A stretch of DNA of 43,055 nt from an uncultured Candidatus Melainabacteria bacterium (GTDB taxonomy: Bacteria > Cyanobacteriota > Vampirovibrionia > Gastranaerophilales > Gastranaerophilaceae). The position numbers were made by a program, and so were the translations under genes. Shown here in pieces: positions 2,028 through 43,049 of this stretch; the stretch's first letter is position 1, and each line of letters starts with the position of its first letter. Where the stretch lies: NCBI GenBank assembly GCA_934693215.1, contig CAKUVB010000001.1, forward strand, positions 1 to 43,055, given 5' to 3'. Below the pieces are notes generated by a model, which did not search any database, had not been told where the DNA came from, and saw only the letters and a program-made list of their open reading frames with translations.

Positions 2028-2276
2028 TTATGGTTTCTTGAAATGCTTAACCAATCTATAAATTCCGTAAGCCGCAGAACCAATTGCGGTTAAAATTCCA
2101 CCTATCGTAAGACCTTTTTTTAAATTGCTTGATTTTTTAGTAGATGGTTCAAAAGAGTCAGTTGGATATTCCGGAGCTTTTGGCATTGGCGGTTTTCCGC
2201 AAATGTTTAACCCTTGATCATACAAAGCATTTATTAATAAATCATCTGCTCCATAATATGATGGTACACCTTGCAT
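2028..2276 (-). CDS. hypothetical small tail-anchored membrane protein, 82 aa
   Basis: The ORF has an SD-like GAAAGG upstream and one C-terminal hydrophobic helix (GLTIGGILTAIGSAAYGIY) followed by basic residues. It is bracketed by motif copy E1 and a terminator. Confidence 0.6.
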   Translation of the reverse strand: MQGVPSYYGADDLLINALYDQGLNICGKPPMPKAPEYPTDSFEPSTKKSSNLKKGLTIGGILTAIGSAAYGIYRLVKHFKKP

Positions 2277-2309
2277 AAACTAACCTTTCAAATTAACCTT
2301 ACTCTTATA

Positions 2310-2336
2310 TAAAGTATTTTTTTATTCAAAAATTGC
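2310..2336 (-). promoter_or_regulatory. bipartite motif GCAATTT-N14-ACTTTA, copy E1 (perfect)
   Basis: The minus strand reads AAAAAAGCAATTT-ttgaataaaaaaat-ACTTTA. The ATG of the 82-aa gene is exactly 33 nt downstream. Confidence 0.6.
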
Positions 2337-2411
2337 TTTTTTGTAAAAAAATGTAACGTTAGGTAAATTTTTTGCTTATATTATAGCAAAATCAAAAATT
2401 CCCATGACTTA

Positions 2412-3476: not shown

Positions 3477-4562
3477 ATGAACAAGGTTATGCTTAAAAAT
3501 AAAAACCTATATTATATTGGTGGCATTGTACGTGATATGATTCTTAATAAAGAATCTTTTGACATTGATATCACATACGTTGGCAATGCTATTGAATATG
3601 CACAAACATTAAATAATATTGAGATTATTAAAATTAATGAGCCATTTGGAACAGTAAAAATCAAACATAATGGTCAAGAAATAGATTTGGCATCAACAAG
3701 AAATGAAATATATCCCAAAGCCGGACACTTACCTGTTGTCGTTGAGATAGGGTGTTCTTTAAAAAAAGATGTAGAAAGACGAGATTTTACCATTAACACT
3801 CTAGCAAAATCTCTTGAAACAGGAGAAATAATTGATTATTTAGGTGGCTTAAAAGATATTGAATCCAAAACCATTAGAGTTTTGCACGACAATAGTTTTA
3901 TAGATGACCCAACAAGAATAATTAGAGCATTAAAATTTTCTGTAAGATTTGGGTTTGATTTAGATTCGCATACAAAAGAATTACAAACAAAATATTTACA
4001 GAATATTAATTATGATATGAGCTATAAAAGAGTAAAAAAAGAGATTATAGAAACATTTAACTTGAATTCTCAACAAGCTTTTGAAAGATTTTTTGATGAA
4101 AAAATTTATAAACTATTAACTATAAAAGAATTTAAAAAACCAAAATATAATATTCAAAAATTAATAGAAAAATATCCTGTCAAAAATGTTTGGTTGGTTT
4201 ATCTTGGTTGGTGTGATTTGAGCAAACTTTCGCTAACTAAACAAGAATCAAAGATTATTGAAAACTATAATAGACTAAAAACTTTGAACCTTGAAAATAA
4301 TTATGAACTATACAAAGAGTTTAAGGATTCCGAAAAAGAGAGTATTCTTTTATATGCAATAAACATTGATGATAAAAAAGTGTTCCATTATTTTGAAAAC
4401 CTTGCAGATATCAAACTGAATATTACTGGAAAAGATTTGCAGAATATGGGAATAAAACCGTCTAAAAAATATTCTGAATGTTTTGAATATGTTTTGAAAC
4501 AAAAAATACAAAATCCTAAAATAAATGAACAACAAATTGCACTAGAATTTTTTAAGCAATAG
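3477..4562 (+). CDS. cca: tRNA nucleotidyltransferase (CCA-adding)/poly(A) polymerase family protein
   Basis: Motifs GGIVRDMILNK..DIDI, RRDFTINT and DDPTRIIRALKF are typical of class II nucleotidyltransferases. The protein is short (361 aa) and lacks an HD domain. Confidence 0.75.
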   Translation: MNKVMLKNKNLYYIGGIVRDMILNKESFDIDITYVGNAIEYAQTLNNIEIIKINEPFGTVKIKHNGQEIDLASTRNEIYPKAGHLPVVVEIGCSLKKDVERRDFTINTLAKSLETGEIIDYLGGLKDIESKTIRVLHDNSFIDDPTRIIRALKFSVRFGFDLDSHTKELQTKYLQNINYDMSYKRVKKEIIETFNLNSQQAFERFFDEKIYKLLTIKEFKKPKYNIQKLIEKYPVKNVWLVYLGWCDLSKLSLTKQESKIIENYNRLKTLNLENNYELYKEFKDSEKESILLYAINIDDKKVFHYFENLADIKLNITGKDLQNMGIKPSKKYSECFEYVLKQKIQNPKINEQQIALEFFKQ

Positions 4563-6126
4563 TTTTAATTTTATTTGGTTGTTGAGGTTGGGCTTGTACT
4601 TGTTTTGTAGCTTGAGCCACTTGTTGTTGATAATCATGTGTTCCAGGGAAAGCATCAACACCTGTCATTTTTTTAGTAATCCAATACTGTAAATCAGGAA
4701 TCAATTTCGACAAGAATAATGCTGCAACTGCAAATCCAGCTACAAAATTAATGCCGTTGTACATCATATTTTTATTTTTCATTTTCTTCAACAAATTCAA
4801 ATCAACTATATTTCCGTTTTTCTTTGCGGCTTTGCAAACATCATCTACATAATCCTTCATTCTTCCATTTAATTTTTCTAACTTTTTGTAAGAAACAAAC
4901 TTATTAGGATTAGAAGATGCACCATCTGTGTATAATTCATGTGCTGATTTTAAGAGTTCAGGATTATTAAGTTCCCCACCTTGATAAACCCCTCTTACTT
5001 GAGCTCTTGTCAAAATGCCTTTTCCTTGTTGTTGAGGTTGAACAGTAGACATTTTTGCTGCACGAGCTTGGATTTCCGGATTGGTTTCAATCTCATTAAA
5101 TCTATCAAGAGTAATTGCCTCAGCTTTTTCTCCAAAGAACTTATCAATATCAACTGTTGATGTTTGATTACCATAAGCTCGTTTTTTGAATTCCTCAATA
5201 GACATTGTTGCATTATGTTCATTGTCAAACATACTAGCAAAATGGTTGTGCAAAATACCCGCAGTATTAGGGTCAAGCCTTGTCCAACGACCAGATTCAG
5301 CTTTGTTCATCGCTGCTCTAACATGGTCTTGTGCAAACATATAGAAATAAATCGAACCGCCATCACGTACGACAATTTCTACTTTTTCTTCTTTTTTACG
5401 GGCATTGTATGTTCTACCACCAAGTACACCCAAATCAGTAGATAATAACTGACCAGTGTTGGTGTTTTCCATAAAGTTTGTGAAAGTGTTTAGTCCACCT
5501 TTAAATGCTGGCTGACCTTGTGATATTGCAGGATTTTGCGTGATTTTTGTTTTAAAATTATCAAATTTTGATTTGTTAGACGCATCATCTTGGACAACTG
5601 TCAAACGATAATGAGGAACAATATGATTTTTATCTTGTTTTTTGAAGGAATTAGTAATTTTATGGTTTAGTGGCGGAACAACAAAACCAATAATATAGTT
5701 TGCGGCAAGCACACTAGCTGCAACTTTACCAAATTTCAACATTGAAAGCTTGCGTTCGGATAAATTTTTTGGATTGAATAATTTGTTTTTAATAAAGTTA
5801 TTAAACGGTTTTCTTACAGCATCTTGACCGACATCAAATGAAGAATCCAGACGTTTGCCATTCGAACCTTTTGCGACATTAAGGAATTTCGCAATGACTT
5901 TATCTCCAATATAATTAAAGAGTTTTACTCCACCAAGCCATACAAGAGAACCGCTAGTTTCTTCTATTGCACGTTCTCTGGCTTCTTCTACGCCACCTCT
6001 TTTATATGCTTTTGCAGTACGACCGGTCACAACAAAACCCTCTAACCCAATAATTGGAGTAAGAGCATCTTGTTTTGTAACAATTGTTATACCTTTTCCA
6101 AGTAAATTGCCTAAACCTGCAGTCAC
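4552..6126 (-). CDS. hypothetical membrane protein, 524 aa, Gln-rich C-terminal tail
   Basis: GTG start with AAGGA 6 nt upstream. Several hydrophobic helices (e.g. FGKVAASVLAANYIIGFVVPP, INFVAGFAVAALFLSKLI). No recognisable domain. Its 3' end overlaps the cca-like gene by 11 nt. Confidence 0.7.
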   Translation of the reverse strand: MTAGLGNLLGKGITIVTKQDALTPIIGLEGFVVTGRTAKAYKRGGVEEARERAIEETSGSLVWLGGVKLFNYIGDKVIAKFLNVAKGSNGKRLDSSFDVGQDAVRKPFNNFIKNKLFNPKNLSERKLSMLKFGKVAASVLAANYIIGFVVPPLNHKITNSFKKQDKNHIVPHYRLTVVQDDASNKSKFDNFKTKITQNPAISQGQPAFKGGLNTFTNFMENTNTGQLLSTDLGVLGGRTYNARKKEEKVEIVVRDGGSIYFYMFAQDHVRAAMNKAESGRWTRLDPNTAGILHNHFASMFDNEHNATMSIEEFKKRAYGNQTSTVDIDKFFGEKAEAITLDRFNEIETNPEIQARAAKMSTVQPQQQGKGILTRAQVRGVYQGGELNNPELLKSAHELYTDGASSNPNKFVSYKKLEKLNGRMKDYVDDVCKAAKKNGNIVDLNLLKKMKNKNMMYNGINFVAGFAVAALFLSKLIPDLQYWITKKMTGVDAFPGTHDYQQQVAQATKQVQAQPQQPNKIKTIA

Positions 6127-6193
6127 AATTAATCCTTATTTTCTACACTTTCATGATAAATAAGTCATGAACATATACATATTTGCTTATTTT

Positions 6194-6244: not shown

Positions 6245-6907
6245 TTACACTAATCCCTCTTTCAAAGCTTTTACTGCGGCTTGTGTTCTATCATCAACAA
6301 CAAGTTTTTGAATAATATTACAAACATGAGCTTTTGCAGTATGCTCACTTATAGTAAGGGTTTTAGCAATTTCACTATTGGTTTGTCCATCAACAACAAG
6401 TTTTAGGACTTCGTATTCTCGTTGAGTAAGATTAGAATGTGTTTCTCTAAACCCAGCTCTTGATAATTGACGAGGAGGAATAACTCCACAATTTTTATCT
6501 TTTATAAATGGAACAACTTGTGGGTCTATCCACATCGCCCCATTTTTTATTGTTTTTAAAATAACCATGAGTTGTTCTGTATTTATGTCTTTCATTATGT
6601 ACCCAAACGCACCGGCTGATAAGGAGTTAAATATCTCGTCTTCTGATACACGAGCCGTTAATATCACAACTTTAACATTAGGAATATTTAATTCCATAAT
6701 TTTTTTTGTAGCATCAATCCCTGATATATCAGGTAATCCGATATCCATCAGAACAATATCAGGCTTTAACAATTTTGCTTTTTCAACAGCTTCTGCACCG
6801 TTTTGAGCTTCAGCAACTATTTCTAGTTCAGGATATTCTTCAAAAAGTGATTTTATCCCAATTCGCATAAGTTTTTGGTCATCTACAAGTAAAATACGTA
6901 TAGCCAT
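6245..6907 (-). CDS. NarL/LuxR-family two-component response regulator (REC + LuxR HTH)
   Basis: REC motifs LLVDDQ, DIVLMDIGLPDISG and LTAR, followed by the C-terminal HTH LTQREYEVLKLVVDGQTNSEIAKTLTISEHTAKAHV. The start is set at MAIRILLVDD because GGAGG lies 7 nt upstream; the track's start at 6922 has none. Confidence 0.9.
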   Translation of the reverse strand: MAIRILLVDDQKLMRIGIKSLFEEYPELEIVAEAQNGAEAVEKAKLLKPDIVLMDIGLPDISGIDATKKIMELNIPNVKVVILTARVSEDEIFNSLSAGAFGYIMKDINTEQLMVILKTIKNGAMWIDPQVVPFIKDKNCGVIPPRQLSRAGFRETHSNLTQREYEVLKLVVDGQTNSEIAKTLTISEHTAKAHVCNIIQKLVVDDRTQAAVKALKEGLV

Positions 6908-7370: not shown

Positions 7371-7949
7371 ATGGTTTATTCTGTTAGTAACAATATTGCG
7401 ACAATTACCGGACAAAATGGTATATACGACAAAAAAGTAACATCACCTGATGTCAAATACGGACGTAATGCTGCCGCTAATTACAACCAATATATCAAAG
7501 ATATTGTAAAATCTCCCGATTTGCCACCTCTCAAATTTGAATACAGATATATTCCGACAGGAAAGTACTCGACCCAAGCACTTATGGGCAATGCTTATGA
7601 AGAATTAGGCAAAAAAACAGAAGTTTCTGTGAAAGAGCTGAATGAAAAACTGCAATCTCCTGAATTGACTGCAGAAGCACTTGACCTTAATAATGACGGA
7701 AAAGTCGATATCGCTGAATATGCAACCTCTACTATGGCTACCGATATGCTTGATACAGACCAGACAAAATGTGATGTAAAAAATCTTGACGGAAAAATTA
7801 CCAACAAGGGTGAAGACGCAACAATGCATCTATATACAAAACAAAATGTACAAAACGCAAAAGCCTTGTTCACAGAAATTCATAAACACTTTGACCTTGA
7901 TAAAGCAATGAATGAGTTTAAGGCTAATCCGAATAATACTATAGAATAA
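7371..7949 (+). CDS. hypothetical protein with one canonical EF-hand Ca-binding loop
   Basis: The start is moved to ATG 7371 because GGAGG lies 7-8 nt upstream. DLNNDGKVDIAE fits the 12-residue DxNxDGxIDxxE loop. A second, imperfect loop is DVKNLDGKITNKGE. There is no signal peptide. Confidence 0.65.
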   Translation: MVYSVSNNIATITGQNGIYDKKVTSPDVKYGRNAAANYNQYIKDIVKSPDLPPLKFEYRYIPTGKYSTQALMGNAYEELGKKTEVSVKELNEKLQSPELTAEALDLNNDGKVDIAEYATSTMATDMLDTDQTKCDVKNLDGKITNKGEDATMHLYTKQNVQNAKALFTEIHKHFDLDKAMNEFKANPNNTIE

Positions 7950-17231: not shown

Positions 17232-20200
17232 TTACTCATGTTTTTGTTGCTCTTTGAACATTTCTTCTAGAATGTTCAATTTTTCAACAATCTGAGGTTG
17301 TGTAATTAATGTATCTAACTGAGAACGAATTAAATCCGTTAGATTATAGCTATATTCTGCTGATCTTTTATCTGTTTGTCTATCTATCATCTCTGCCATT
17401 GTATTTGTCAGAACATTTGGGAATGTTTCTAAATCTAATTTTTTAGAATGAATAAACACACCCTCTAATTTATCAAAAGGTTTTGATGCAGAAAAACCTG
17501 TTTTACTCTTAACATTTGAATTATTATCATATACATAAAGTTGTGGTATTATATCCGGTAATACTTTTTTTGAATCATTTTCAGCAATTAATTGTATAGC
17601 TTCATTAAGTATTTGTAATTGTTTTGATTGTCGCTCTGTTGGTCGTACAGAATGCGGTCTATGTAGTTTCTCATACAATTCATGTGCATCAGGAATACCT
17701 ATACCTCTACCTTCATTATCACAGAAGATATATCCTTGTTCTCTAAAGAAATCTTCTTCTTTTGGAGCAAGGTTGCGAGAATATTCACTATTAATTTTAT
17801 CTACAGTAACAACTTTTTTATCACCAAAATCTATATTCATTTTTCTATTTTTTGCTTCTCTAAGAACTGCAACTGCAAATTGATATGAAAGATTCTTTTT
17901 CTGAGAAGAAACATTAAATATTTTGCTTTTTGCATCTTTACTCATAAGAATTGGTTCTAATACTTCAAGAGCTTTTAACAATTCAGCATCAGATAATGTT
18001 TTGAGATAAGCAGAGGATAATTCTCGCATTTGACGAGCCTCTATTGACATTCTATCTCTAGTTGTATTCAAATCTATTGTATAACCGACTTTGTTTTTAA
18101 ACTCATCACCAAAAGCTGCTTGTTTAAATACAATAGTCATATCTTGCATACCGCCTTCCATTTTTTTGTCAGGGGTTTGGAATCTTTGTATATAATATAA
18201 GTTTCCGTTATGTTCAGGAGTAACTTTAAATCCAAAGAACTCATTTTCAACATCTAAATCTTTGAAATCAGGGTTATGCGGATTATAGAAATAATTTTTT
18301 GATTCCATAATCATTTTCACAAGATTTTCGTCTGTGGTATCAAATTCTACATAATTACCATCAAGTCGTTCAGGTTGTTTTGTCAAAGTTCTTAAAACTG
18401 ATGCATTTTCTTTATTGTTTTTATCAGAGTTTGTAAAATCCATTTGCCAATCAGCACAAGCAAATCTGACTCTATCCGAACCTTTCGCAAGCAAACTGCC
18501 AGCTATAATACGGCTACCTTCTCCGTAACCACCTGCATCTTTAGGATTATCCTTGTCAGAGCCACCAAGACGTTTCAAATGATGATAATCATAAATACCC
18601 TTACCATCTATTCTAACTGTATATGTACCGTTCTCGTTTTTATTAACTTTTATATCTACACCTTCAAGTGTATGACCATTTCCATCATAGAAATTTTGCA
18701 TCAAATCTCTAGCAATTTTTTCATTACTCCAATCTCTTTTTTCGGCATAAGAAACTGTCATTCTTGCTTGAACAGTTTTATTCAAATCCCTATCATTTTC
18801 TACGTTAGGTATTTCAGAAATTTTAGGATTTAATCCACCTGAATCAGCAATATTTATTTCAACATGCCCGTTATCCTCCAACTCTTTCATTGTTGTTTCT
18901 GTAGATTTGAGAGTTGTGTATGTATCATGTTTCTCAGGAATATATTCTTGATATTTAAGTGAGTTAGCTTTTTTAGGTTTCGTAACTGTTTCTGTTTCAA
19001 TTGCTGTTTCTACAGGCATTTCTGCTTTATTTCGTCTTAATATCCTATTAATAAAAGATTTTGCAAAACGTTTTATACCTGTTAAGTTAAATCTAGAAGT
19101 TATTTTGTGATTTTCTTCAAAGGTTTTTAATTTCGATTTATCAAAATCTAAAACTGCTTTATTATTTCCATCTGAAAGTTGTTTTTTAGATGTATACATA
19201 TCTTCTGATTCTGAAGATTTTTCCGGTACTACATATTCTTTATATTCAACAGGTGTTGATATCAATTGTTCTATAGATTGTTTATATTCTTCTGGTTCAA
19301 AATTATCATCTCTAATTATTTCTGTTTCTATTTTTTCCTTATACTGTTCACTTTTTACTTCATTAAAAAGTTTTGATAAAACTTGGAATTTTTTAATCGC
19401 ATTTGGATTATGCATCAAAACATTTGTAATATGCGATTGCATCTCAATTAATTGTTCAGAAAATCTTTCTGACGTATCCGGACCTATTTTGTGAGAAATT
19501 TCATGTAAAAATGTAGATAAATTTTCTACATAATTCTGTAATAACAAGTGACTATCACGCATCCAGTGACCTTGATATTCTCTGTTTTCAATAATTGCTT
19601 CAGCACCTTCATTTAAAGCACCACCTTCACCAAACATATATGTTGGTTTGCCGACTTCATCGCTATTTAATAAATTTTGTGTTCTTGTATCTGTACATTC
19701 TTGCAATATACGAACCCCTTCTTCTAACAGTCTGATTTGTTTAGATTGAGCCTCAGTAGGTTTATGTGGCATTTTAGATTCATCAACACTTGTAAGACTT
19801 GGCATACCAACATCTTTCATTTCTTCTACTGCAAGTTTATATCCCATTAGTTTTGCCATTTCTATAGTTTCAGGAGAAGCAAGTTTACTCATATATACAT
19901 ATCTGGAATCCTTGAAATCTATACCTAGACCACGTTCTTTTGCTTCTTGAATAAAAGGCATAAACATTGTATTGGATTGTTTATCTTCACTAATTTTCCA
20001 AAAATTTTCCATTGAAGAAATTGTTTGCGTAAGTTCTTCATCACTCATTGATTTTATATATCGAGATAAAATGCGATTAATATCACTTGACGGAATTTGA
20101 GCTCTATCAACACCTGTGCCAAGTTTAAAATCTGTTCCTCCATCTTTCTCTACAAGTGTTGGGTGGTTCGGCTGTGTCTTAAATACAATAGTAACACCAT

Positions 20201-23200
20201 CAAGTCCATTATCAGAAGTATAATTAGTTTCATATCGTTGTATTAAATATATATTACCACTTCTTTTTTGAGGTAACAATTTAATACCAAAAAACTCATT
20301 TTCAAAATCAAAGTTTTGAAAATCCGGATTATGCGGGTGATTAAAATAATCTTGAGCATCAAGAATATTTTTAACCATATAAATATTATCAGTTTCAAAT
20401 TCAACCGTAGACCCTTTCACTTTTGATTCATTTTGAGAAAGAGTTTGTGTCATATATGCAGATTTCAAATCATCAGAAGAACGACCATAAGTCATTGTCC
20501 AATCTCCTGATGCATATTTAACATTTTTTATATCAGGTTTAGAAAGTAGGCTTACAGCAACGGCTCTTGTTCCTTCACCATATCCACCGGCATCTAATGG
20601 ATTATGTTTTGTAGATGACCCCATTTTATCAAGATGAGCATAATCCCAACTGCTTTCACCTGAGATTTTTATTCTGTATGTTCCATTTTCTGTTTTGTTT
20701 ACTTCAATATCAACACCTTCAAGTGTATGACCATGACCGTCATAATAATTTTGAAGAATATCACGTGCTATTTTGAAATTACTCCATTGTAATTTTGTAC
20801 CATAGCGAATTTTTATATCTGCATCTTCTTCAACATTAAGACGTTCTCTATCCTCAGGGTGTATTATTGCATCATAAGGTTGTACTTTTACTCCACCTTC
20901 GTTAGGAATAGATAGTTTAACATGACCTGTATCCTTCAATTGAGCCATAAGCTCTCTTGTTGAAGGCAGTAAATCAACATTTACTCTTGGTTTTTTAGGT
21001 AATTTTTCAAATGGGTTTATTTTTGAAGGAGTATATTTATCCTCAAAAGAAGAATACATATTTCGTTTATCTATGCTTTCTGCAATAAGTTTAGCAGCCT
21101 CTACAGGGTCATAATCGACAGGTTCTGCCATTTTTTCTCGCATTTGAGATTCATATACTTCGACATCAACAGGTTCTTCTACTCTCACCTCTAGAGGTGT
21201 AACAAGCCTGTTAAAATCTTTGTCTGACATATTTAATATTCTTTGCCAATCACCAAATTTATACGTTTCTGATAATATATTTTGTCTTGTTTCAAAATTA
21301 GCTTTCTTTTGTTCAAATTCTTTGTCATCACAATTAAGGAATTCGAATACTTCACTATTATCAATAGATTTATTCTTATAAGCATTTTCTAACATTGAAA
21401 GAATTTCTCTTTGAGCAAGTTTAGAATAATCAAGCTCTAACAATTTATCTTTTTGTGCAGAATTACAATACAAATTTTGTATCAAGTCAATTTCATTTGT
21501 TTCAAGTAATGGATAATAACCCTCAAATCTCTGAATTATCGCATTTCGTTTAGTTTCATTTTCATTACAAGTTAATGCATAGTTTAAATCGGCAATTTGT
21601 CTATTTCTAGATGGAAAATATTGACTAAGATTTCTAGATGCCTGTTCAAGCTCTGAAACACCTTTAGTATAATATGGTAATTCCTTTAGGATTTGATTGA
21701 TAACTCTTTGTTCATCATCGTTTAATTTTTCATTTCTTATGTCACTAGAACCTGAACTTAGTAAAGATTCTTCACTACAATATTCCTCCAAATCCTTAAA
21801 ATCTTCAGGGGCAATATGGTTTTTCAAGATTTCTATATAATCATGTTTTAGTTTATTAAGTCTTTCAAACTTTGAAATCCTATATATACCATTATTAACA
21901 TTATTTATAAATCTCGCTTCTGCTTCTTTATCTTGAACAAAACTCAACAATTTTTCTGTTTGTTTCTCTGGAACTTGTCCATTTTCTTCAATTACTCTTG
22001 CAAGCTCTATATTATTTTTATTAATAGATCGAATACTTGAACGATTTAAATGAGTCAATACATCAATATTATCTTTTACAAAATCTTTATCCCAAGACTG
22101 TCTGTTTAATTTGGTTAAAATTGTACTTACATTTTCAGGGTGGCCATCATTATTGATATATGTTTTTTCAACAAGTTCTTGTGCAATATCGAAATTTTCT
22201 TTATTTGTCTTTGATAAAGTTTCATAAACATATTCTTTAGGTATATTTCTACCTTTTATCATATCTAATATTTGTGTTTTTGATGGAATATCTTCCATTT
22301 TTAAATTTCTATATGGAAGCCATTCTTCTTCAGCTTTATCACCTCTTAAATCTTTTGTTAAGTCATAAAACTGCTTTATTGCATCAGCATCACTATTTTC
22401 AAGTCCTTCTTTGACTTGTGCAAACCAATCTTGTGAAATATTTTCTTCGTTTGCAAAATTATCATATAATTTTTTGAACTGAGAATAATTTCTGTCATTT
22501 ATAAATATCATATGTTGTCCAAATATATTATCATTATGAATAATATTTGAATATTTACCTGCTTTTGCGTCTTTATAAAATTCTAACATTACTTTTTGGA
22601 CATCAGAAGGCGAACTTGCAATAAAAGTTCCATCTAACAAGTCTATTTTTTCTAAATCCGAACCAAAAGCTTTTATCAAGTTATTTGTACTCTCAGCATT
22701 ATCTGAAACACTAACTGCATATAAAATATCTGATTTTAGTTCGTCAGAAATATTATCTTTGCTCCTCAACGTATCTATTAATTCTTTGAAATCGGCTATA
22801 TTTTTTGAATTAATATGTCCAACAACTTCATGCCCGTCAGGAAACATTTTTTTGCCTTCTTCGGTGTTTATCCAATCAAAAATTTCTTTGACGGCAGATA
22901 AATCTTCAGGTTTGGAAATCTTCTCTATTTCTGATAATCCCATTAAATTTTGAGGAGTTTCATCACCCTTAAACTCTTTAATAAAATCTGCTTTTTGTTG
23001 CTCAAAATTCTCTGCCGTAATTAACTGAGTATTATTTTCCGAAGCTTTACTTTGTTTATGTGTATTTTCTTCGTTTATTCTATCTTCATTTCTTTCACCA
23101 TCATGTCTAACTGTTGCAGAAAGAACAGTTTTTGTAGGGTCAAAGTCTTGAGGGTTTTGTTCATTATCAGGAGTAACAGATTCTTCATTATTCGTAGAAG

Positions 23201-24725
23201 GTTTTATGTTGCTAGCCATATCAAATTGCATAATGACATTACATTTCGCAATAACTTCTTCCATTGTCAAAACATTACTTTTACTGCCATCAGGCATTGT
23301 TAATTCAAAAGAAGTTTTGCCATTATCTGTTTTCTTTTCAACTTTTATATTATTAAGTGTTTCACATTTAGACAAATTGTCTTTGATAATATTATTTCTA
23401 ATATCGGCAGTTCCTTTGTGCATAAATATCAATTTAGAAATAGCTTTTATCTCAGCAAGATTTGTCGCTTGTCCTTTAAAATGCTTCCACAAATATTTTG
23501 CTAAACCTTCTTCTGTCAAATCTTTTGGAAGATGTCTTTCTCCGTTTTCATCTTTTTTGAGTAATTCTTTTGTAACCTCATTAGCCGTTTCGTACATAGT
23601 AAACCCTGATATCTCAGCTAACATGCCGGCAGAATTTGCAACTACACCCGGACCTTGTTTGGTGAGAAAGGTTTGCATAATATCTTTACCTGTTAGAGAA
23701 GAGGATTTATCAAGAGTTTTTGCTAAGTTTTTAGTGACTGCATGAGAAACAGGTTTTTCTAAAAGTTTTGTCGTTCCTGCAACAACTTTACCAACAACGG
23801 TAGAACTTAATAACCCTGCAAAAGCACCAAATTTAGCGGATTCAATATTCCCCTGTTTGTATGCTGCCCATTCGTTAGCAGCATCTTCTCCTGAAAGTTG
23901 GATATCTTTTGTTTTAAGATTGATATAGTTCTTGCTTGCGTCCCATATTGAAAAAGTAGCACTTTGCATAGCCATAGCACCTAAAACAGCACCTACGGTT
24001 ACTTTGTTGCCACCAACCTTCATAAGACCTTTTGCAGATATATTTTTAAGAACTTTTGGTATATATGGAGATATCTTTTTACCAATCGCACCTACACCTT
24101 TGCCAAGTCCTTTGCTGATTAAACCTGTTCCAAGTAACATAATTACGATATCTGCGGCACCGTCTATGTATTCTTGATACTTAACTTTTTTGAGTGCGTT
24201 GTTCACAATTTTGTTTTCGTATGAAACATTACCGTTTTTATCAGTTTTTTCAACATTATATGCTTTTTCATAAGAAGCAGTCCAATCCTCACCATTAGAT
24301 GCGTTGACTAAAAACTCTTTCATTGCATCTTCATCATATTCTTTGCCGGTGAACTCCTTAAACTCACGTTTAAAATCGCCTTCGTGGTTGGCTACATATT
24401 CAAGCCTGTTTGTCGCAAATTCTTTTTCTTGTTCAAGGGTTTTGATAGCTGTATCACAGCAGAGCTTTATGTCTGTAATATTATTGTTCTTTAAAAATTT
24501 ACCGAGTTTTTCTCTATAAAACCCTGCATTCAATACCCCTTGATTACCTTGATATTGTTTGAGAGTATTTATTGCATTATCATACGCAATGGAGATGTTT
24601 TGAGCAGCAGCCTTCCTTATCTCAAGCTTTTGTTGCTCAGAATCTTGTTCTTGTGAGATATTACCTACCTTTGATGCTTTGTTCAATGCATTGGAAGATA
24701 TGTTATTCCCATCTACACTTACCAA
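17232..24725 (-). CDS. giant hypothetical protein, 2,497 aa; N-terminal hydrophobic-helix region, long helical middle, two tandem GHKL-ATPase-like modules
   Basis: Uninterrupted 7.5-kb ORF. TTG start with AAGGAG (24733-24738) 7 nt upstream. The internal duplication and motifs are described under findings. No signal peptide. Confidence 0.85.
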   Translation of the reverse strand: MVSVDGNNISSNALNKASKVGNISQEQDSEQQKLEIRKAAAQNISIAYDNAINTLKQYQGNQGVLNAGFYREKLGKFLKNNNITDIKLCCDTAIKTLEQEKEFATNRLEYVANHEGDFKREFKEFTGKEYDEDAMKEFLVNASNGEDWTASYEKAYNVEKTDKNGNVSYENKIVNNALKKVKYQEYIDGAADIVIMLLGTGLISKGLGKGVGAIGKKISPYIPKVLKNISAKGLMKVGGNKVTVGAVLGAMAMQSATFSIWDASKNYINLKTKDIQLSGEDAANEWAAYKQGNIESAKFGAFAGLLSSTVVGKVVAGTTKLLEKPVSHAVTKNLAKTLDKSSSLTGKDIMQTFLTKQGPGVVANSAGMLAEISGFTMYETANEVTKELLKKDENGERHLPKDLTEEGLAKYLWKHFKGQATNLAEIKAISKLIFMHKGTADIRNNIIKDNLSKCETLNNIKVEKKTDNGKTSFELTMPDGSKSNVLTMEEVIAKCNVIMQFDMASNIKPSTNNEESVTPDNEQNPQDFDPTKTVLSATVRHDGERNEDRINEENTHKQSKASENNTQLITAENFEQQKADFIKEFKGDETPQNLMGLSEIEKISKPEDLSAVKEIFDWINTEEGKKMFPDGHEVVGHINSKNIADFKELIDTLRSKDNISDELKSDILYAVSVSDNAESTNNLIKAFGSDLEKIDLLDGTFIASSPSDVQKVMLEFYKDAKAGKYSNIIHNDNIFGQHMIFINDRNYSQFKKLYDNFANEENISQDWFAQVKEGLENSDADAIKQFYDLTKDLRGDKAEEEWLPYRNLKMEDIPSKTQILDMIKGRNIPKEYVYETLSKTNKENFDIAQELVEKTYINNDGHPENVSTILTKLNRQSWDKDFVKDNIDVLTHLNRSSIRSINKNNIELARVIEENGQVPEKQTEKLLSFVQDKEAEARFINNVNNGIYRISKFERLNKLKHDYIEILKNHIAPEDFKDLEEYCSEESLLSSGSSDIRNEKLNDDEQRVINQILKELPYYTKGVSELEQASRNLSQYFPSRNRQIADLNYALTCNENETKRNAIIQRFEGYYPLLETNEIDLIQNLYCNSAQKDKLLELDYSKLAQREILSMLENAYKNKSIDNSEVFEFLNCDDKEFEQKKANFETRQNILSETYKFGDWQRILNMSDKDFNRLVTPLEVRVEEPVDVEVYESQMREKMAEPVDYDPVEAAKLIAESIDKRNMYSSFEDKYTPSKINPFEKLPKKPRVNVDLLPSTRELMAQLKDTGHVKLSIPNEGGVKVQPYDAIIHPEDRERLNVEEDADIKIRYGTKLQWSNFKIARDILQNYYDGHGHTLEGVDIEVNKTENGTYRIKISGESSWDYAHLDKMGSSTKHNPLDAGGYGEGTRAVAVSLLSKPDIKNVKYASGDWTMTYGRSSDDLKSAYMTQTLSQNESKVKGSTVEFETDNIYMVKNILDAQDYFNHPHNPDFQNFDFENEFFGIKLLPQKRSGNIYLIQRYETNYTSDNGLDGVTIVFKTQPNHPTLVEKDGGTDFKLGTGVDRAQIPSSDINRILSRYIKSMSDEELTQTISSMENFWKISEDKQSNTMFMPFIQEAKERGLGIDFKDSRYVYMSKLASPETIEMAKLMGYKLAVEEMKDVGMPSLTSVDESKMPHKPTEAQSKQIRLLEEGVRILQECTDTRTQNLLNSDEVGKPTYMFGEGGALNEGAEAIIENREYQGHWMRDSHLLLQNYVENLSTFLHEISHKIGPDTSERFSEQLIEMQSHITNVLMHNPNAIKKFQVLSKLFNEVKSEQYKEKIETEIIRDDNFEPEEYKQSIEQLISTPVEYKEYVVPEKSSESEDMYTSKKQLSDGNNKAVLDFDKSKLKTFEENHKITSRFNLTGIKRFAKSFINRILRRNKAEMPVETAIETETVTKPKKANSLKYQEYIPEKHDTYTTLKSTETTMKELEDNGHVEINIADSGGLNPKISEIPNVENDRDLNKTVQARMTVSYAEKRDWSNEKIARDLMQNFYDGNGHTLEGVDIKVNKNENGTYTVRIDGKGIYDYHHLKRLGGSDKDNPKDAGGYGEGSRIIAGSLLAKGSDRVRFACADWQMDFTNSDKNNKENASVLRTLTKQPERLDGNYVEFDTTDENLVKMIMESKNYFYNPHNPDFKDLDVENEFFGFKVTPEHNGNLYYIQRFQTPDKKMEGGMQDMTIVFKQAAFGDEFKNKVGYTIDLNTTRDRMSIEARQMRELSSAYLKTLSDAELLKALEVLEPILMSKDAKSKIFNVSSQKKNLSYQFAVAVLREAKNRKMNIDFGDKKVVTVDKINSEYSRNLAPKEEDFFREQGYIFCDNEGRGIGIPDAHELYEKLHRPHSVRPTERQSKQLQILNEAIQLIAENDSKKVLPDIIPQLYVYDNNSNVKSKTGFSASKPFDKLEGVFIHSKKLDLETFPNVLTNTMAEMIDRQTDKRSAEYSYNLTDLIRSQLDTLITQPQIVEKLNILEEMFKEQQKHE
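17235..18908 (-). repeat. module B of the intragenic tandem duplication (aa ~1940-2497)
   Basis: Aligns by eye with module A along its length. Contains ARDLMQNFYDG (nt 18682-18713) and DAGGYGEGS. Confidence 0.8.
19290..20969 (-). repeat. module A of the intragenic tandem duplication (aa ~1253-1812)
   Basis: Contains ARDILQNYYDG (nt 20737-20768), DAGGYGEGT (D codon at 20592-20594) and HEISH (19491-19505). Confidence 0.8.
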
Positions 24726-24857: not shown

Positions 24858-25057
24858 AAAACTAGAATTAGGAAGGGAATTAGGGTATTTAAAAAATCTT
24901 TTTTATAATCTCTTATCGATTACATATATATAAAGTATATACATATAACCCAATTTCAAGTTGTGTTATATTTGTTACAAAACTTAATATCCTTGTCTAA
25001 AAATCACTATTAGCAAGGAATCTCTAAAAATTAATAACTACCCAACATTATAAATTA

Positions 25058-34079: not shown

Positions 34080-35000
34080 TTACTTAACAATCTTACTATT
34101 ATCAATAAACCCGCTATAACCAAACTTAGCAAGCTCTTTTGGAGTATAAACTTTTCTAATTAATCCATCTCTCCTATTGAGTTCTTGAAATTCACCAACT
34201 TCTTGATTTCCATAAATGCCTTCCCAAGGGGCATTAACAATTTCTCGTTCGCCCTTGTCACTCTTTATTTCGTTTGCATTTCCTTCAATAACTGTTATTG
34301 AACCATCAGGATTAACTGACTCTATTATACCAATATGACTTGCATCAAATTTTTTTAACTGACCACCAGAAAGTTGTACCATATAAGATGACTTCCAAAT
34401 AATATAATCACCTTCATGCATTGATTTTGTTTGTTGTCTAATTTGTTTTTCTCTTGATGCACGTTCTTGTTTATAATTTTTTGGAGTAATTTCTTGTTCT
34501 TTTATCGGTTTATATGTTTTCTTATCCGTTGCCCAATCAATAAACTCTTTTACAGACTTTTTATGTCCATCTATGTTCATACCGGCTTCTTCTGACAAAT
34601 GACTAACCGTATGGGCACACCATTGATGATTTAATTTTCCATAATCCCCAATAAGATGCATTTGAGTATTACGTTTTTCTTGTGGAGAAAGTTTATCATA
34701 TTCATTTTGCGTTACTTCTTGAATTCCAAGATGGTTTTGTGCAACATTCAATAAATTCGTTTTATGAGGCTTTTTATACATTAATGACATTGTTTTTTGT
34801 CCAAAAGGTTTTGCAATTTTCCCAACTTTTGGTGGAATAATTTTGGTTTGACCAAATGATATATTTGGGAAAAAACTATTATTTAAATCCACTTTATAAC
34901 TAAACAATGGTGTTTCACCTTTATTTAGTGTTTTTTGTTTGCCCAAAGTATCATCTTGTTGCAAAACCGGTTGAAAATTTATATCGTAAAATTCTGTCAT
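34080..35000 (-). CDS. CHAP-domain (cysteine/histidine amidohydrolase-peptidase) protein
   Basis: The C-terminal half has QWCAHTV (Cys nucleophile context), HIGIIESV (His) and VIEGNA. There is no signal peptide. The ~130-aa N-terminal part is unrecognised. Confidence 0.7.
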   Translation of the reverse strand: MTEFYDINFQPVLQQDDTLGKQKTLNKGETPLFSYKVDLNNSFFPNISFGQTKIIPPKVGKIAKPFGQKTMSLMYKKPHKTNLLNVAQNHLGIQEVTQNEYDKLSPQEKRNTQMHLIGDYGKLNHQWCAHTVSHLSEEAGMNIDGHKKSVKEFIDWATDKKTYKPIKEQEITPKNYKQERASREKQIRQQTKSMHEGDYIIWKSSYMVQLSGGQLKKFDASHIGIIESVNPDGSITVIEGNANEIKSDKGEREIVNAPWEGIYGNQEVGEFQELNRRDGLIRKVYTPKELAKFGYSGFIDNSKIVK

Positions 35001-35020: not shown

Positions 35021-35047
35021 TAAAGTATTTTTAGAGATAAAAATTGC
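35021..35047 (-). promoter_or_regulatory. bipartite motif, copy E2 (perfect)
   Basis: The minus strand reads AAAAAGGCAATTT-ttatctctaaaaat-ACTTTA. The CHAP gene ATG is 20 nt downstream. Confidence 0.6.
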
Positions 35048-35129: not shown

Positions 35130-35354
35130 ATGAACAATATTTGGAATTTAACAGATAGAGAATATGAAATTTTAAAGTTTATTACTCAAGGATTATCAAA
35201 TCCTGAGATTGCAGAAAAACTTTATATTACAACTCATACTGTAAAAGCTCACATTCTTGCAATATATCAAAAAACAGGTATCCACTCCAGAGTTGTTTTA
35301 GCTGTGAGGGCGATAAAATTAAGAATTATAAATACTGAACATTTTACCGAATAA
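35130..35354 (+). CDS. stand-alone LuxR-type HTH protein, 74 aa
   Basis: LTDREYEILKFITQGLSNPEIAEKLYITTHTVKAHILAIYQK is a complete LuxR/GerE HTH with no receiver or ligand domain. Confidence 0.75.
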   Translation: MNNIWNLTDREYEILKFITQGLSNPEIAEKLYITTHTVKAHILAIYQKTGIHSRVVLAVRAIKLRIINTEHFTE

Positions 35355-38999: not shown

Positions 39000-39093
39000 G
39001 CATAACACTTATTTTACTTGCTTTTTCACTATTTCATATTTTATATTTTAACCATTTATTGTAAATAAATGTAACAAACTTGCATCAAAAAAG

Positions 39094-39120
39094 GCAATTT
39101 TTTGTTTCTTAAATACTTTA
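39094..39120 (+). promoter_or_regulatory. bipartite motif, copy E4 (perfect), not followed by an ORF
   Basis: AAAAAAGGCAATTT-tttgtttcttaaat-ACTTTA. The second box is part of the perfect 17-nt palindrome ATACTTTAATAAAGTAT (39113-39129). Confidence 0.6.
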
Positions 39121-39129
39121 ATAAAGTAT

Positions 39130-39187
39130 AAAGCTCTCTCTTCTTATTTAAACGGACAGACCTTGATAACACAAGGTCTTTTTTTTA
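39130..39187 (+). ncRNA. candidate small RNA (~50-55 nt): CU-rich 5' part plus intrinsic terminator
   Basis: Downstream of motif copy E4 there is no start codon. The sequence is GCTCTCTCTTCTTATTT, then the hairpin AGACCTT-gataacac-AAGGTCT (39158-39179), then T8. Confidence 0.35.
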
Positions 39188-39396: not shown

Positions 39397-39423
39397 GCAA
39401 TTTTTGTATGAATATATACTTAT
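39397..39423 (+). promoter_or_regulatory. bipartite motif, copy E6 (GCAATTT-N14-ACTTAT)
   Basis: The first box and spacing are exact, and the second box differs from ACTTTA at two positions (a TA/AT swap). It overlaps the palindrome TATACTT-ATA-AAGTATA (39416-39432). The RHH gene ATG is 51 nt downstream. Confidence 0.45.
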
Positions 39424-39474
39424 AAAGTATATACAGGGTATATGATATCGACTAGATAAAAGGAGAATATAAAT

Positions 39475-39663
39475 ATGGCAAGAGTACTTATTTCAATGCC
39501 TGAAAAGTTTTTAGACGAAATTGACAATGTTGCTGACACAGAAAATCGTTCTCGTTCAGAACTTATCAGAGAAGCATTAAGAACTTACATTCACAGAAAC
39601 AGAGTAAGAACATCTAGTTATGCAAACAAAAATGCCCAATTACTTGAAGCATTGTTAGACTAG
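39475..39663 (+). CDS. CopG/ribbon-helix-helix family DNA-binding protein, 62 aa
   Basis: MARVLISMPEKFLDEID...RSRSELIREALRTYI is a typical RHH beta-strand plus two helices. AAAGGAG SD. Confidence 0.75.
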   Translation: MARVLISMPEKFLDEIDNVADTENRSRSELIREALRTYIHRNRVRTSSYANKNAQLLEALLD

Positions 39664-41485: not shown

Positions 41486-41689
41486 TTAATTGTTACTCAA
41501 AACAATTCTTAATGTTGCTAAATTCTTAATAGATAACATTTTGTGTTTGTTTCTTTGAGCTTTTGCAATCTCAAAAATACGAATCATTCTTTGAATTTCA
41601 TCAATATCTTTTTGTGATTCGATTTTATATACATTATTAATTGGATCTGCTACTACTGACATCATTGCGTTTAATTCTGATTCTTTCAT
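41486..41689 (-). CDS. hypothetical small protein, 67 aa
   Basis: AAAGGA SD. It is bracketed by motif copy E3 and a terminator. No recognised motif. Confidence 0.55.
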   Translation of the reverse strand: MKESELNAMMSVVADPINNVYKIESQKDIDEIQRMIRIFEIAKAQRNKHKMLSIKNLATLRIVLSNN

Positions 41690-41722
41690 TTTTATTCCTT
41701 TTCAAAATTCTCTATACTTTAA

Positions 41723-41749
41723 TAAAGTTTTTTTGAACAAGGAAATTGC
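41723..41749 (-). promoter_or_regulatory. bipartite motif, copy E3 (perfect)
   Basis: The minus strand reads AAAAAAGGCAATTT-ccttgttcaaaaaa-ACTTTA. The ATG of the 67-aa gene is exactly 33 nt downstream. 36 of 44 nt are identical to copy E4. Confidence 0.6.
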
Positions 41750-41825
41750 CTTTTTTATTTATGTTTGTAAAGATATATTTACAAACTGTTTATGATAGTC
41801 TAAATAAATACTCCTAATATTCACA

Positions 41826-43049
41826 TTATAAAAGGTCTTTTAAATATATGTCAATTAGTTTTCTATGTAAATTTACATTATGTACACGCAAATAATCTAT
41901 CTCTTTTTCTATCGCAATTGTATTAAGGGCAACGGTGAAAATATCTTTTTCTTCATTGTTTTCCAACTGTAACAAACTTTTTCTTGAAATTCCCAACATT
42001 ATAGGATACCCCATAGATTTGAATTCATCTATACGGTTAAATAATCTAAAATTGTCCTCTAAAGTTTTGTCAAACCCTATCCCCACATCAATGATAATAT
42101 TATTAATCCCCATTGATTTGGCATATTCTGTTTGTTTATAAAGGTCAAGATAAACCTCATCAATTAGTTTGTCATACGGCTCTACATTACTCCCTCTGTT
42201 TTGACGATACAAGGAATGTTGAATAACAACTGTTGCATTATACTTAGCAATAGTTTCAGCCATATTAGAATCATATTTCAACCCGGAAACATCATTAATA
42301 ATTTTTGCACCTTTTTTCAAACATTCTTCTGCAACAATAGAACTACGAGTATCAATGCTTATAATAGATTTGTCATTAACAAGTGGCAAAAGCCTTTTGA
42401 GTTGAATTTCAGGTGATATCGGCTCAGCATTTAGCTTAGTTGATTCTGCACCAATATCTATAATATCTGCCCCATCTTGTACAAGTTGATTAAAATGGGC
42501 TTGTGCTTTTTCAACCTCTAAATACTCTCCACCGTCCGAAAATGAATTGTTTGTAATATTCAAAATCCCAACAAGTTTGGTTTTGTGATGTTTGGTTTCT
42601 AATTGAGCTAAGATTTCATTTGACAGTTCTTTGAGTGAAAAAGGTTGGAATTTTAGCTTTTCTGCAATTTTTCTTAGTTGTGAAAAACTTCCACCCAATA
42701 TTACATCTGAGGTATCAACTTTTCCTGTAATAACTTCTCTATGCACTGCACAATCAGAACCTAGTGTTAATGCAATTTGCTTCAGGATATTCGCTTGCGG
42801 AACAGTTAAACCATATATTTTTAAATTTTTATAAACAAATTTTTCCTTCGCTTTATGTCGATAACTAACATCAAAACCTATATTTTCCAGTTCTTTAACA
42901 TAATCTGCGTTATTGATTTCTTTCAAAATAAACTTACTCATTTCTAAAGGATAACATAATAAAAACAACACTACCAAAACGAATATTAACTTTTGTAAAG
43001 AATTGAAAAGCATGTGAAATTGCGGGTTTTGGAATGTTTTTATATACAT
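41826..43049 (-). CDS. folP: dihydropteroate synthase with ~150-aa N-terminal extension
   Basis: Pterin-binding motifs ILNITNNSFSDGG, DIGAEST, ISIDT, INDVSG, DVGIGFDKT and GISRKS. The frame stays open to the window edge, so the true start is uncertain. Confidence 0.85.
   Translation of the reverse strand: MYIKTFQNPQFHMLFNSLQKLIFVLVVLFLLCYPLEMSKFILKEINNADYVKELENIGFDVSYRHKAKEKFVYKNLKIYGLTVPQANILKQIALTLGSDCAVHREVITGKVDTSDVILGGSFSQLRKIAEKLKFQPFSLKELSNEILAQLETKHHKTKLVGILNITNNSFSDGGEYLEVEKAQAHFNQLVQDGADIIDIGAESTKLNAEPISPEIQLKRLLPLVNDKSIISIDTRSSIVAEECLKKGAKIINDVSGLKYDSNMAETIAKYNATVVIQHSLYRQNRGSNVEPYDKLIDEVYLDLYKQTEYAKSMGINNIIIDVGIGFDKTLEDNFRLFNRIDEFKSMGYPIMLGISRKSLLQLENNEEKDIFTVALNTIAIEKEIDYLRVHNVNLHRKLIDIYLKDLL

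Follow-up and report, generated by a model that had tools for sequence, protein, structure and literature searches.

Which part of the transcription machinery reads a pair of short boxes that recurs, exactly 14 nucleotides (nt) apart, in front of small and hypothetical genes, and what do the boxes control? The question is raised by a 43,055-base stretch of DNA (hereafter the window; contig CAKUVB010000001.1 of assembly GCA_934693215.1) from an uncultured Candidatus Melainabacteria bacterium, in which the heptamer GCAATTT (box 1) is followed at that distance by ACTTTA (box 2). Through comparison with related genomes we show that the motif is genuine, that it is conserved, and that its placement and direction are those of a promoter; it may be taken as a second, minority promoter class of the Gastranaerophilales.

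Results

The two-box motif in the window

An initial annotation, made from the letters of the window, had listed four perfect copies of the motif and put the number expected by chance at about 0.01. Both statements were reproduced. A pattern scan of the two strands returned exactly four copies of GCAATTT-N14-ACTTTA, and dinucleotide-preserving shuffles gave a mean of 0.01 copies with none reaching four; a chance origin of the motif is unlikely. The heptamer alone was not enriched in the window (26 versus 19 ± 4.5), and the signal therefore resides in the pairing of both boxes. The copies were scored in bits with a 42-position weight matrix trained on related genomes and are as follows.

2310-2336 (-): E1, candidate core promoter, perfect match; 33.3 bits, the top score of the window
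2336-2330 and 2315-2310 (-): E1 boxes GCAATTT and ACTTTA, respectively
2313-2308 (-): predicted -10 element of E1, TTTATA, with the transcription start predicted at about 2300-2302
35021-35047 (-): E2, candidate core promoter, perfect match; 28.0 bits
41723-41749 (-): E3, candidate core promoter, perfect match; 28.5 bits
39094-39120 (+): E4, candidate core promoter, perfect match; 28.9 bits
7311-7337 (+): E5, candidate core promoter with GTTTTA as box 2; 22.0 bits
39397-39423 (+): E6, candidate core promoter with ACTTAT as box 2; 26.8 bits
30165-30191 (+): E7, a copy of the initial annotation; 6.0 bits, within the noise
6160-6186 (-): weak candidate copy, 10.8 bits; 33 nt before the GTG of an orphan gene of 524 amino acids (aa) at 4552-6126 (-)
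24931-24957 (-): weak candidate copy, 10.7 bits; about 200 nt before a 2497-aa gene, membership uncertain

The three degenerate copies that had been annotated, E5, E6 and E7, are all present. E5 and E6 are true degenerate members of the motif class, while E7 is doubtful because its score falls inside the noise, and it is probably not a class member. The two weak copies had been overlooked; the search for degenerate copies allowed two mismatches. Membership of the copy at 6160-6186 is uncertain because its score lies below the gap that delimits the class; in the copy at 24931-24957, box 1 is degenerate, and box 2 and an upstream TGTAAC are good. The gene behind the latter (17232-24725, -) encodes an orphan protein with two long internal repeats, both of which contain the segment 'WSNxKIARDxxQNxYDGxGHTLEGVDI'.

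Conservation of the motif among related loci

The comparative sample was collected with an FtsY search, which gave 80 related loci. Where a taxon was named, the labels were mostly Candidatus Gastranaerophilales, Melainabacteria or Cyanobacteria, with a few naming other taxa; many loci were 'uncultured bacterium'. One locus of the same species (L001) was dropped and another (L039) is the complete genome MEL.A1; the 79 related loci and the window together comprise 1.39 Mb, to which the counts below refer unless another sample is named. The window itself has a G+C content of 31% and genes of chromosomal type (ExbB/D, ClpC, DnaJ, GrpE, dUTPase, RnpA, NusB, FtsY and FolP). An origin from a plasmid or mobile element was rejected on this gene content and on empty megablast searches of both halves against plasmids; the window belongs to a Candidatus Gastranaerophilales chromosome. 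It contains no tRNA, and Rfam gave no match at gathering thresholds.

The two boxes occurred 14 nt apart in 22 cases, and the remaining spacings between 0 and 40 nt were seen 0-2 times each. A spacing of 14 between the 7-mer and the 6-mer is the same as GCAATT, 17 nt and TTTATA, which is the bipartite geometry of promoters of the sigma-70 family. The initial annotation had proposed to compare the frequency of the motif upstream of genes with that inside genes. All 22 perfect copies and 27 of the 33 one-mismatch copies were intergenic, although intergenic DNA makes up only 13.6% of the total. All 22 perfect copies and the intergenic one-mismatch copies face the next gene and thus lie upstream in promoter orientation, as had been described for the window.

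Expectation-maximization on 689 upstream regions of the comparative set converged on about 76 of them with a 27-bit model, consisting of an A-tract, (a/g)GCAATTTTt, six free positions and AAAAA-TACTTTATAtAnATAt. When both strands were scanned with the matrix, the scores were bimodal, with 93 sites of at least 18 bits, none between 16 and 18 bits and 27 between 10 and 16 bits. An open reading frame (ORF) was found for 83 of the 93 sites using a start-codon finder that demands a Shine-Dalgarno-like sequence, and in 80 of the 83 the start codon lay 29-53 nt past box 2. The mode was 33 nt, which is the distance that had been correctly noted for E1, E3 and E5.

The boxes are also kept upstream of orthologues. 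In an alignment of six sequences, the boxes of E3 were retained in five orthologous loci, in front of the orthologues of the 67-aa gene, while the flanks diverged. An exact-pattern scan of public metagenome contigs gave 121 matches. About 60 of them, on contigs of 28-38% G+C, showed every class feature that was absent from the query, namely A-tracts, upstream repeats, a TATA-rich stretch with G's behind it, and an ORF at a distance of 30-45 nt; about 55 had strongly negative scores and are chance matches in unrelated DNA.

Register of the boxes and predicted transcription start

With the G of GCAATTT as position 0, the class is made up of an A-tract at -8 to -2, GCAATT(TTT) at 0-8, a 17-nt spacer ending in AAAAA-TAC, and TTTATA at 23-28, with which ACTTTA of the initial annotation overlaps. 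The A-tract that had been reported ahead of box 1 is thus real. In a 189-aa protein family (four loci) the ATG is at +34 from the G, with no room for a leader or a ribosome-binding site, and in an unrelated 460-aa family (two distant loci) it is at +36, again with no room for a leader. The conservation of the small RNA downstream of E4 (see below) begins at about +34 in two metagenome contigs in which the promoter spacers have diverged. We infer that transcription starts at about +34 to +36. Such a start would make GCAATT (0-5) the -35 element and TTTATA (23-28) the -10 element with a spacer of 17 nt, the same register that had been suggested from the window. The usual leader would then be about 25 nt long with a Shine-Dalgarno sequence, equal to that of the housekeeping class.

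Four other registers were considered and judged less likely, since each conflicts with the conservation profile or with the leaderless ATG positions: a -10 of TACTTT at 20-25 (sigma-A-like TAnnnT), a -10 of AATACT at 18-23 (J-Box-like), a Bacteroidetes-type TAnnTTTG, and TTTACA as -35 with GCAATT as -10. A T7-like promoter (AATAC...TATAGGG) was also rejected; its spacing is 3 nt too long and it leaves the GCAATTT box unexplained.

The regions without the motif, seeded with TTGACA-N17-TATAAT, gave a separate class, TTG-N17-(T)GnTAtAAT, that covers about 58% of them, with -10 frequencies of T 0.95, A 0.91, A 0.84 and T 0.93. This housekeeping promoter with an extended -10, TTG-N17-TGnTAnAAT, is described here for the first time in this lineage. 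Since it serves most other upstream regions, the motif appears as a promoter class of its own, in the minority. Scored with the housekeeping model, motif-bearing regions had a median of 3.5 bits versus 7.5 bits for the others, and in no hexamer register does the motif class combine an A at position 2 with a T at position 6, as sigma-A promoters do. In the housekeeping class, the distance from -10 to ATG has its 25th percentile at 9 nt and about one quarter of the sites have 6-9 nt; the sequence data suggest that leaderless mRNAs are common in Gastranaerophilales.

A perfect TTGACA-18-TATAAT is present at 41825-41854 (-), at the 3' end of folP and about 70 nt upstream of E3, and it is kept in all six orthologous loci. 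The 67-aa gene downstream of E3 may therefore have two promoters, or the motif may itself be transcribed.

Upstream repeats resembling HLR1

The words TGTAA, GTAAC, GTTAA and TTACA are strongly enriched upstream of box 1, at -34 ± 1, -23 ± 1 and sometimes -12, and TGTAA in its clusters at -34 and -23 was counted 39 times versus 5.8 expected. About two thirds of the copies carry one to three phased TGTAA(A/C) or (G/T)TTACA repeats, 10-11 bp apart, between -36 and -4, which corresponds to about -70 to -40 relative to the predicted start. The enriched words are the two orientations of (G/T)TTACA, the half-site of HLR1. HLR1 is the site bound by the cyanobacterial response regulator RpaB and consists of two 8-nt repeats (G/T)TTACA(T/A)(T/A) with 2 nt between them; its centre lies at -66 to -45 in RpaB-activated promoters, and repression occurs when it overlaps the start (PMC6525291).

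A match to HLR1 of at least 14/16 was found for 42% of 64 non-redundant class sites versus 3.9% of intergenic windows, and for this subset the resemblance holds; five of the 64 sites, E4 included, have perfect matches. The matches are mostly in reverse orientation, with the centre 26.5 ± 1.5 nt before box 1 and a second cluster at -12.5. Given the predicted start, the main centres would be at about -61 and the second cluster, like the pair of E1, at about -47, within the range reported for activation. Among 58 intergenic HLR1-like sites of at least 15/16, 27 stand no more than 70 nt ahead of a class site. The elements in the window are listed below.

2340-2367 (-): upstream array of E1, three direct repeats with a 10-bp period, TTTACCTA / GTTACATT / TTTACAAA; the last two repeats form a perfect HLR1-type pair and the distal pair matches at 15/16
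41764-41785 (-): upstream element of E3, TTTGTAAA-N6-TTTACAAA, two inverted HLR1-type half-sites, invariant in the six-sequence alignment
39058-39075 (-): upstream element of E4, ATTGTAAATAAATGTAAC, 16/16 to the HLR1 consensus on the opposite strand, with its centre 27.5 nt before box 1

E2 has no good upstream repeat array. Homologues of RpaA, RpaB and NblS are present in Melainabacteria, MEL.A1 among them, despite the lack of photosynthesis and must serve another role (Di Rienzi et al. 2013, PMC3787301); RpaB homologues are reported for MEL.A1, B1, B2 and ACD20. MEL.A1 carries class sites at its locus in our sample. Given the RpaB and NblS homologues of Melainabacteria, the HLR1-like array is a concrete candidate target of that system. 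The comparative DNA contained no OmpR-type gene, and receiver-domain matches in it were to NarL-type proteins only.

Target genes

The regulon of small and hypothetical genes that had been proposed for the window proved correct and much larger, with about 93 sites per 1.39 Mb throughout the clade. No housekeeping gene carries the motif, which had been noted for the window and is also true for the 1.39 Mb of relatives. The downstream genes belong to more than 30 families, most of them without a Pfam match; the exceptions are LysM, CHAP, HEAT, ribbon-helix-helix and a weak EF-hand. The targets in the window are as follows.

2028-2276 (-): target of E1, 82-aa protein without a Pfam family, hydrophobic anchor at the C-terminus; start 33 nt past box 2
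34080-35000 (-): target of E2, 306-aa protein with CHAP (Pfam E = 2.9e-7) and no signal peptide; start 20 nt past box 2
41486-41689 (-): target of E3, 67-aa protein with no Pfam family
39475-39663 (+): target of E6, 62-aa ribbon-helix-helix (CopG family) protein, Pfam RHH_1, E = 3.1e-10
7371-7949 (+): target of E5, 192-aa protein whose EF-hand-like match is weak and under the Pfam cut-off; ATG 33 nt past box 2

Three PDB searches by sequence also returned nothing. An N-terminal hydrophobic segment was found in 1% of the target proteins versus 19% of others, and N, G, S, T, Q, Y and P made up 45% of the first 60 residues of targets versus 33% in others. Read by eye, several targets have low-complexity regions rich in Gly/Cys or Asn/Tyr, protease-like motifs of the HExxH or Cys/His kind, or a membrane anchor at the C-terminus. 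That the products almost entirely lack Sec signals suggests export by a route not yet recognised, or assembly inside the cell.

The target genes turn over rapidly. Orthologues of the 67-aa protein were found in six related loci (L002-L006 and L010), and the orthologue in the metagenome locus L186 has the same promoter. The ribbon-helix-helix and CHAP genes are confined to the species of the window among the ftsY loci, and the region of E4, E6 and the ribbon-helix-helix gene showed no DNA-level conservation in ftsY loci outside the species. A slot about 1.2-2.6 kb downstream of the ftsY start contains a motif-bearing orphan gene in nearly every locus, with differing families and orientations. 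In the window this turnover hot spot is occupied by E3 and the 67-aa gene (41486-41749).

A candidate small RNA downstream of E4

E4 is followed by no ORF, as had been annotated, and an intrinsic terminator comes after it. The predicted transcript is given below.

39128-39187 (+): candidate small RNA of about 58 nt; 5' part unstructured and CU-rich (AUAAAGCUCUCUCUUCUUAUUUAAACGGA); terminator hairpin at 39158-39179, then a U-run

Ahead of the hairpin the transcript has 30 unstructured C/U-rich nt (CUCUCUCUUCUU), and its fold has a z of -2.96. The RNA recurs in two metagenome contigs, at L109:1-55 (-) and L126:6590-6657 (-), where its 22-nt core is identical, and no Rfam covariance model matched the RNA. 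Class sites in two related loci (L076 and L009) likewise precede a terminator without an ORF. As a speculation, the CU stretch, which resembles an anti-Shine-Dalgarno sequence, could pair with GA-rich ribosome-binding sites of the regulon mRNAs.

Discussion

The proposed mechanism and the points against it

We propose with moderate confidence that the motif is a specialised promoter class of the Gastranaerophilales, in which an alternative sigma factor reads the boxes and an RpaB-type regulator acts on the upstream repeats. RNA polymerase with such a non-housekeeping sigma factor would recognise GCAATT and TTTATA. A response regulator of the OmpR family, similar to RpaB, would occupy the repeats and help recruit the polymerase. 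The class would thereby co-ordinate roughly a hundred genes specific to the lineage in each genome, and at least one small RNA. The distinct promoter class suggested by the initial annotation is supported by the rigid spacing, the placement, the separate majority class, the leaderless ATGs and the conservation of the small RNA.

Several points weigh against this mechanism. The proposed -10 element, TTTATA, has no A at position 2, where proteins of the sigma-70 family usually need one, so that an activator-dependent mechanism or a different register is possible; the -10 may then be TACTTT at 20-25 or the J-Box-like AATACT at 18-23. One third of the sites, E2 included, are without HLR1-like half-sites. 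The half-sites themselves are A/T-rich words in a genome of 31% G+C, they differ in number and register between sites, and most run opposite to the gene. Because the loci share synteny around ftsY, some of the sites are orthologous copies, and redundancy filtering left 64. No gene for a sigma factor or a regulator lies under the motif and there is no sign of autoregulation; among 93 plus 71 class sites in about 2 Mb of scattered DNA, none precedes a sigma-like gene. Sigma genes were located by tblastn with SigA, RpoE and SigF query sequences. Those in L053, L062, L074 and L043 have no motif upstream, and sigma autoregulation was rejected; their region 4.2 residues look sigma-A-like.

Two arrangements near sigma genes were observed besides. 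In L053 (1-520), the gene for a 300-aa sigma factor (515-1417) is divergent from a class site scoring 25.5, which may be a coincidence or a lead to the cognate sigma factor. In L074 (2590-2663) and L062 (13340-13419), a promoter of the extracytoplasmic function (ECF) type, GGAACTT-N14-CGTCTAA or CGTCTTA, precedes a 308-aa group-2-like sigma gene, and the sequences hint at a sigma cascade.

Comparison with known promoter systems

The motif class shares with housekeeping sigma-70 promoters a -35 position at 0-5, a 17-nt spacer, a -10 position at 23-28, a predicted start 5-7 nt further on and an A-tract like a proximal UP subsite. Both hexamers, however, are unlike TTGACA and TATAAT, and a separate canonical class exists in the same genomes. 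The canonical ECF-type promoter of the clade, GGAACTT-N14-CGTCTAA, has the same 7+14+7 geometry, but its key AAC and CGT bases are not in the motif; the 20 nt from A2 to C22 would fit the 19-20 nt or so between the two cores of ECF promoters, but the bases there are AAT and CTT, near-invariant. Consensus sequences are GG-N10-GC for sigma-54 and TAAA-N15-GCCGATAA for sigma-28, and the class matrix has neither a GC 10 nt past GG nor GCCGATAA.

SigJ of Nostoc punctiforme, which also belongs to the sister lineage, is an alternative sigma factor with about 100 promoters, which carry the J-Box GGGaAtacT and a weak -35 (PMC6495340). The AATACT of the J-Box is found at motif positions 18-23. The GGG is not, since positions 15-17 of the motif are A (0.68, 0.71 and 0.88). 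GCAATTT is moreover the strongest part of the motif, in contrast to the weak -35 of J-Box promoters, and the predicted motif start is 4-6 nt further downstream than the J-Box register gives.

The upstream repeats can be compared with the RpaB/HLR1 promoters of Synechocystis and Synechococcus, members of the sister lineage, which likewise have paired 8-nt units with a 10-bp period upstream of the core promoter. In the motif class the units are mostly reversed, number one to three and are tied to the non-canonical core GCAATTT/ACTTTA; we know of no description of such a core among the RpaB targets of cyanobacteria. RpaB and NblS form a two-component system famed for light and redox control of photosynthesis genes, and the cyanobacterial RpaB targets are genes for photosynthesis and light stress, unlike the targets of the motif class.

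With regard to logic and type of targets, two other regulons are similar. In Pseudomonas syringae and Erwinia, the ECF sigma factor HrpL recognises the hrp box GGAACC-N15/16-CCACNNA, which is also a bipartite, non-housekeeping promoter of fixed spacing before many variable, strain-specific genes whose products have no Sec signals. A motif of this kind can serve as a tag that reveals a hidden set of proteins across a genome. The box sequences and the phylum differ, and no secretion system or sigma gene is linked to the motif. In Bacillus subtilis, the mother-cell factors sigma-E and sigma-K together with GerE control the coat-protein regulon, which likewise consists of numerous small proteins that evolve fast and have no signal peptides; some are of low complexity, others have LysM or cell-wall hydrolase domains, and each has an alternative-sigma promoter to itself; a GerE-family gene also adjoins E2. 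The consensus sequences differ and the resemblance is confined to gene content, and we know of no sporulation genes or spores in Melainabacteria.

Alternative explanations

In the main rival explanation, an activator takes the part that we assign to an alternative sigma factor. Sigma-A polymerase would then work with a dedicated class II-type activator, such as a stand-alone GerE/LuxR-type protein, bound to GCAATTT in place of the -35 contact, and box 2 would be a weak -10 plus discriminator. Two possible local regulators exist, the product of a 74-aa GerE-family gene (35130-35354, +) divergent from E2, and a NarL-type response regulator (6245-6907, -) encoded between E5 and the weak copy at 6160. 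The bases T20-A21-n-n-n-T25 are compatible with a minimal TAnnnT, and no alternative sigma gene is tied to the motif. We nevertheless regard this explanation as unlikely. The A and T of box 2 that sigma-A would read have frequencies of only 0.69 and 0.67, versus 0.91 and 0.93 in the housekeeping class, and the best-conserved bases of box 2 in the class matrix are instead C22, T23 and T24. The TG extension is absent, GerE homologues occur near class sites in only a few loci, and a -10 at 20-25 would leave too long an interval to a start at +34-36.

The boxes could also be a repressor operator overlapping ordinary promoters, for instance for the ribbon-helix-helix protein whose gene follows E6, and an overlapping operator had been considered in the initial annotation. 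A dyad partner of box 2, AAGTA at +28 or +30, gives some weak support to this idea, being present in 12 of 64 sites versus 2.3% of background windows, and E3, E4 and E6 contain palindromes of the type ATACTTTA.TAAAGTAT. These sites are a minority, however, since the dyad occurs in only about 19%, with its spacing taking two values. Taken as a whole, the motif lacks symmetry and keeps a strict orientation, no ordinary -35 and -10 lie beneath the boxes, and the ribbon-helix-helix gene is limited to one species while the motif spans the order. An operator is thus a very unlikely explanation of the class.

As a separate observation, box 2 is one half of a palindrome (ATACTT(T)A.TAAAGTAT) in E6 at 39397-39440 (+), E4 at 39110-39130 (+) and E3 at 41715-41735 (-), and the box 2 region of E6 is the palindrome ATATACTTATAAAGTATAT. 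The AAGTA palindrome may serve part of the regulon as an additional operator.

Only slight credence is given to the motif as the boundary of mobile gene cassettes, a recombination site or a miniature element with variable cargo. The slot behind ftsY, with motif-bearing genes of differing families and orientations in nearly every locus, and the 78% identity of E3 and E4 across 76 nt would agree with it. Conservation is however limited to the boxes, with a freely variable spacer, the distance to the start codon is constrained with the motif always 5' of the gene, and inheritance of orthologous sites is stable; neither an integrase nor flanking repeats were noticed in the sequences inspected, in which no dedicated search for repeats or integrases was made. 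That the motif is simply the general housekeeping promoter of an A/T-rich clade, as its frequency of about one site per 15 kb might suggest, is hardly credible, because a different majority class exists, the scores are bimodal and no housekeeping gene carries the motif.

Implications for Gastranaerophilales

The motif is an undescribed alternative promoter class with its regulon in uncultured Gastranaerophilales, and a literature search gave no paper on promoters or sigma factors in Melainabacteria. A bimodal promoter tag of 27 bits lists, by sequence alone, about 100 co-regulated and otherwise uninterpretable orphan genes per genome. Some of the Sec-less products have peptidoglycan-binding or -cleaving domains, and the E4 transcript is a candidate regulatory small RNA. 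The class also constitutes a testable target set for the RpaB/NblS homologues, which are unexplained in the non-photosynthetic relatives of cyanobacteria (PMC3787301).

As a tentative and rather doubtful extension, RpaB/NblS together with a dedicated sigma factor could control, in non-photosynthetic gut Melainabacteria, a fast-evolving orphan regulon whose products have no Sec signals (LysM, CHAP, protease-like and low-complexity proteins) and a small RNA of anti-Shine-Dalgarno type. If true, the RpaB regulon would hint that Melainabacteria have a hidden pathway of export, a hidden structure at the cell surface or a hidden developmental programme, and would point to an ancestral, pre-photosynthetic job of RpaB.

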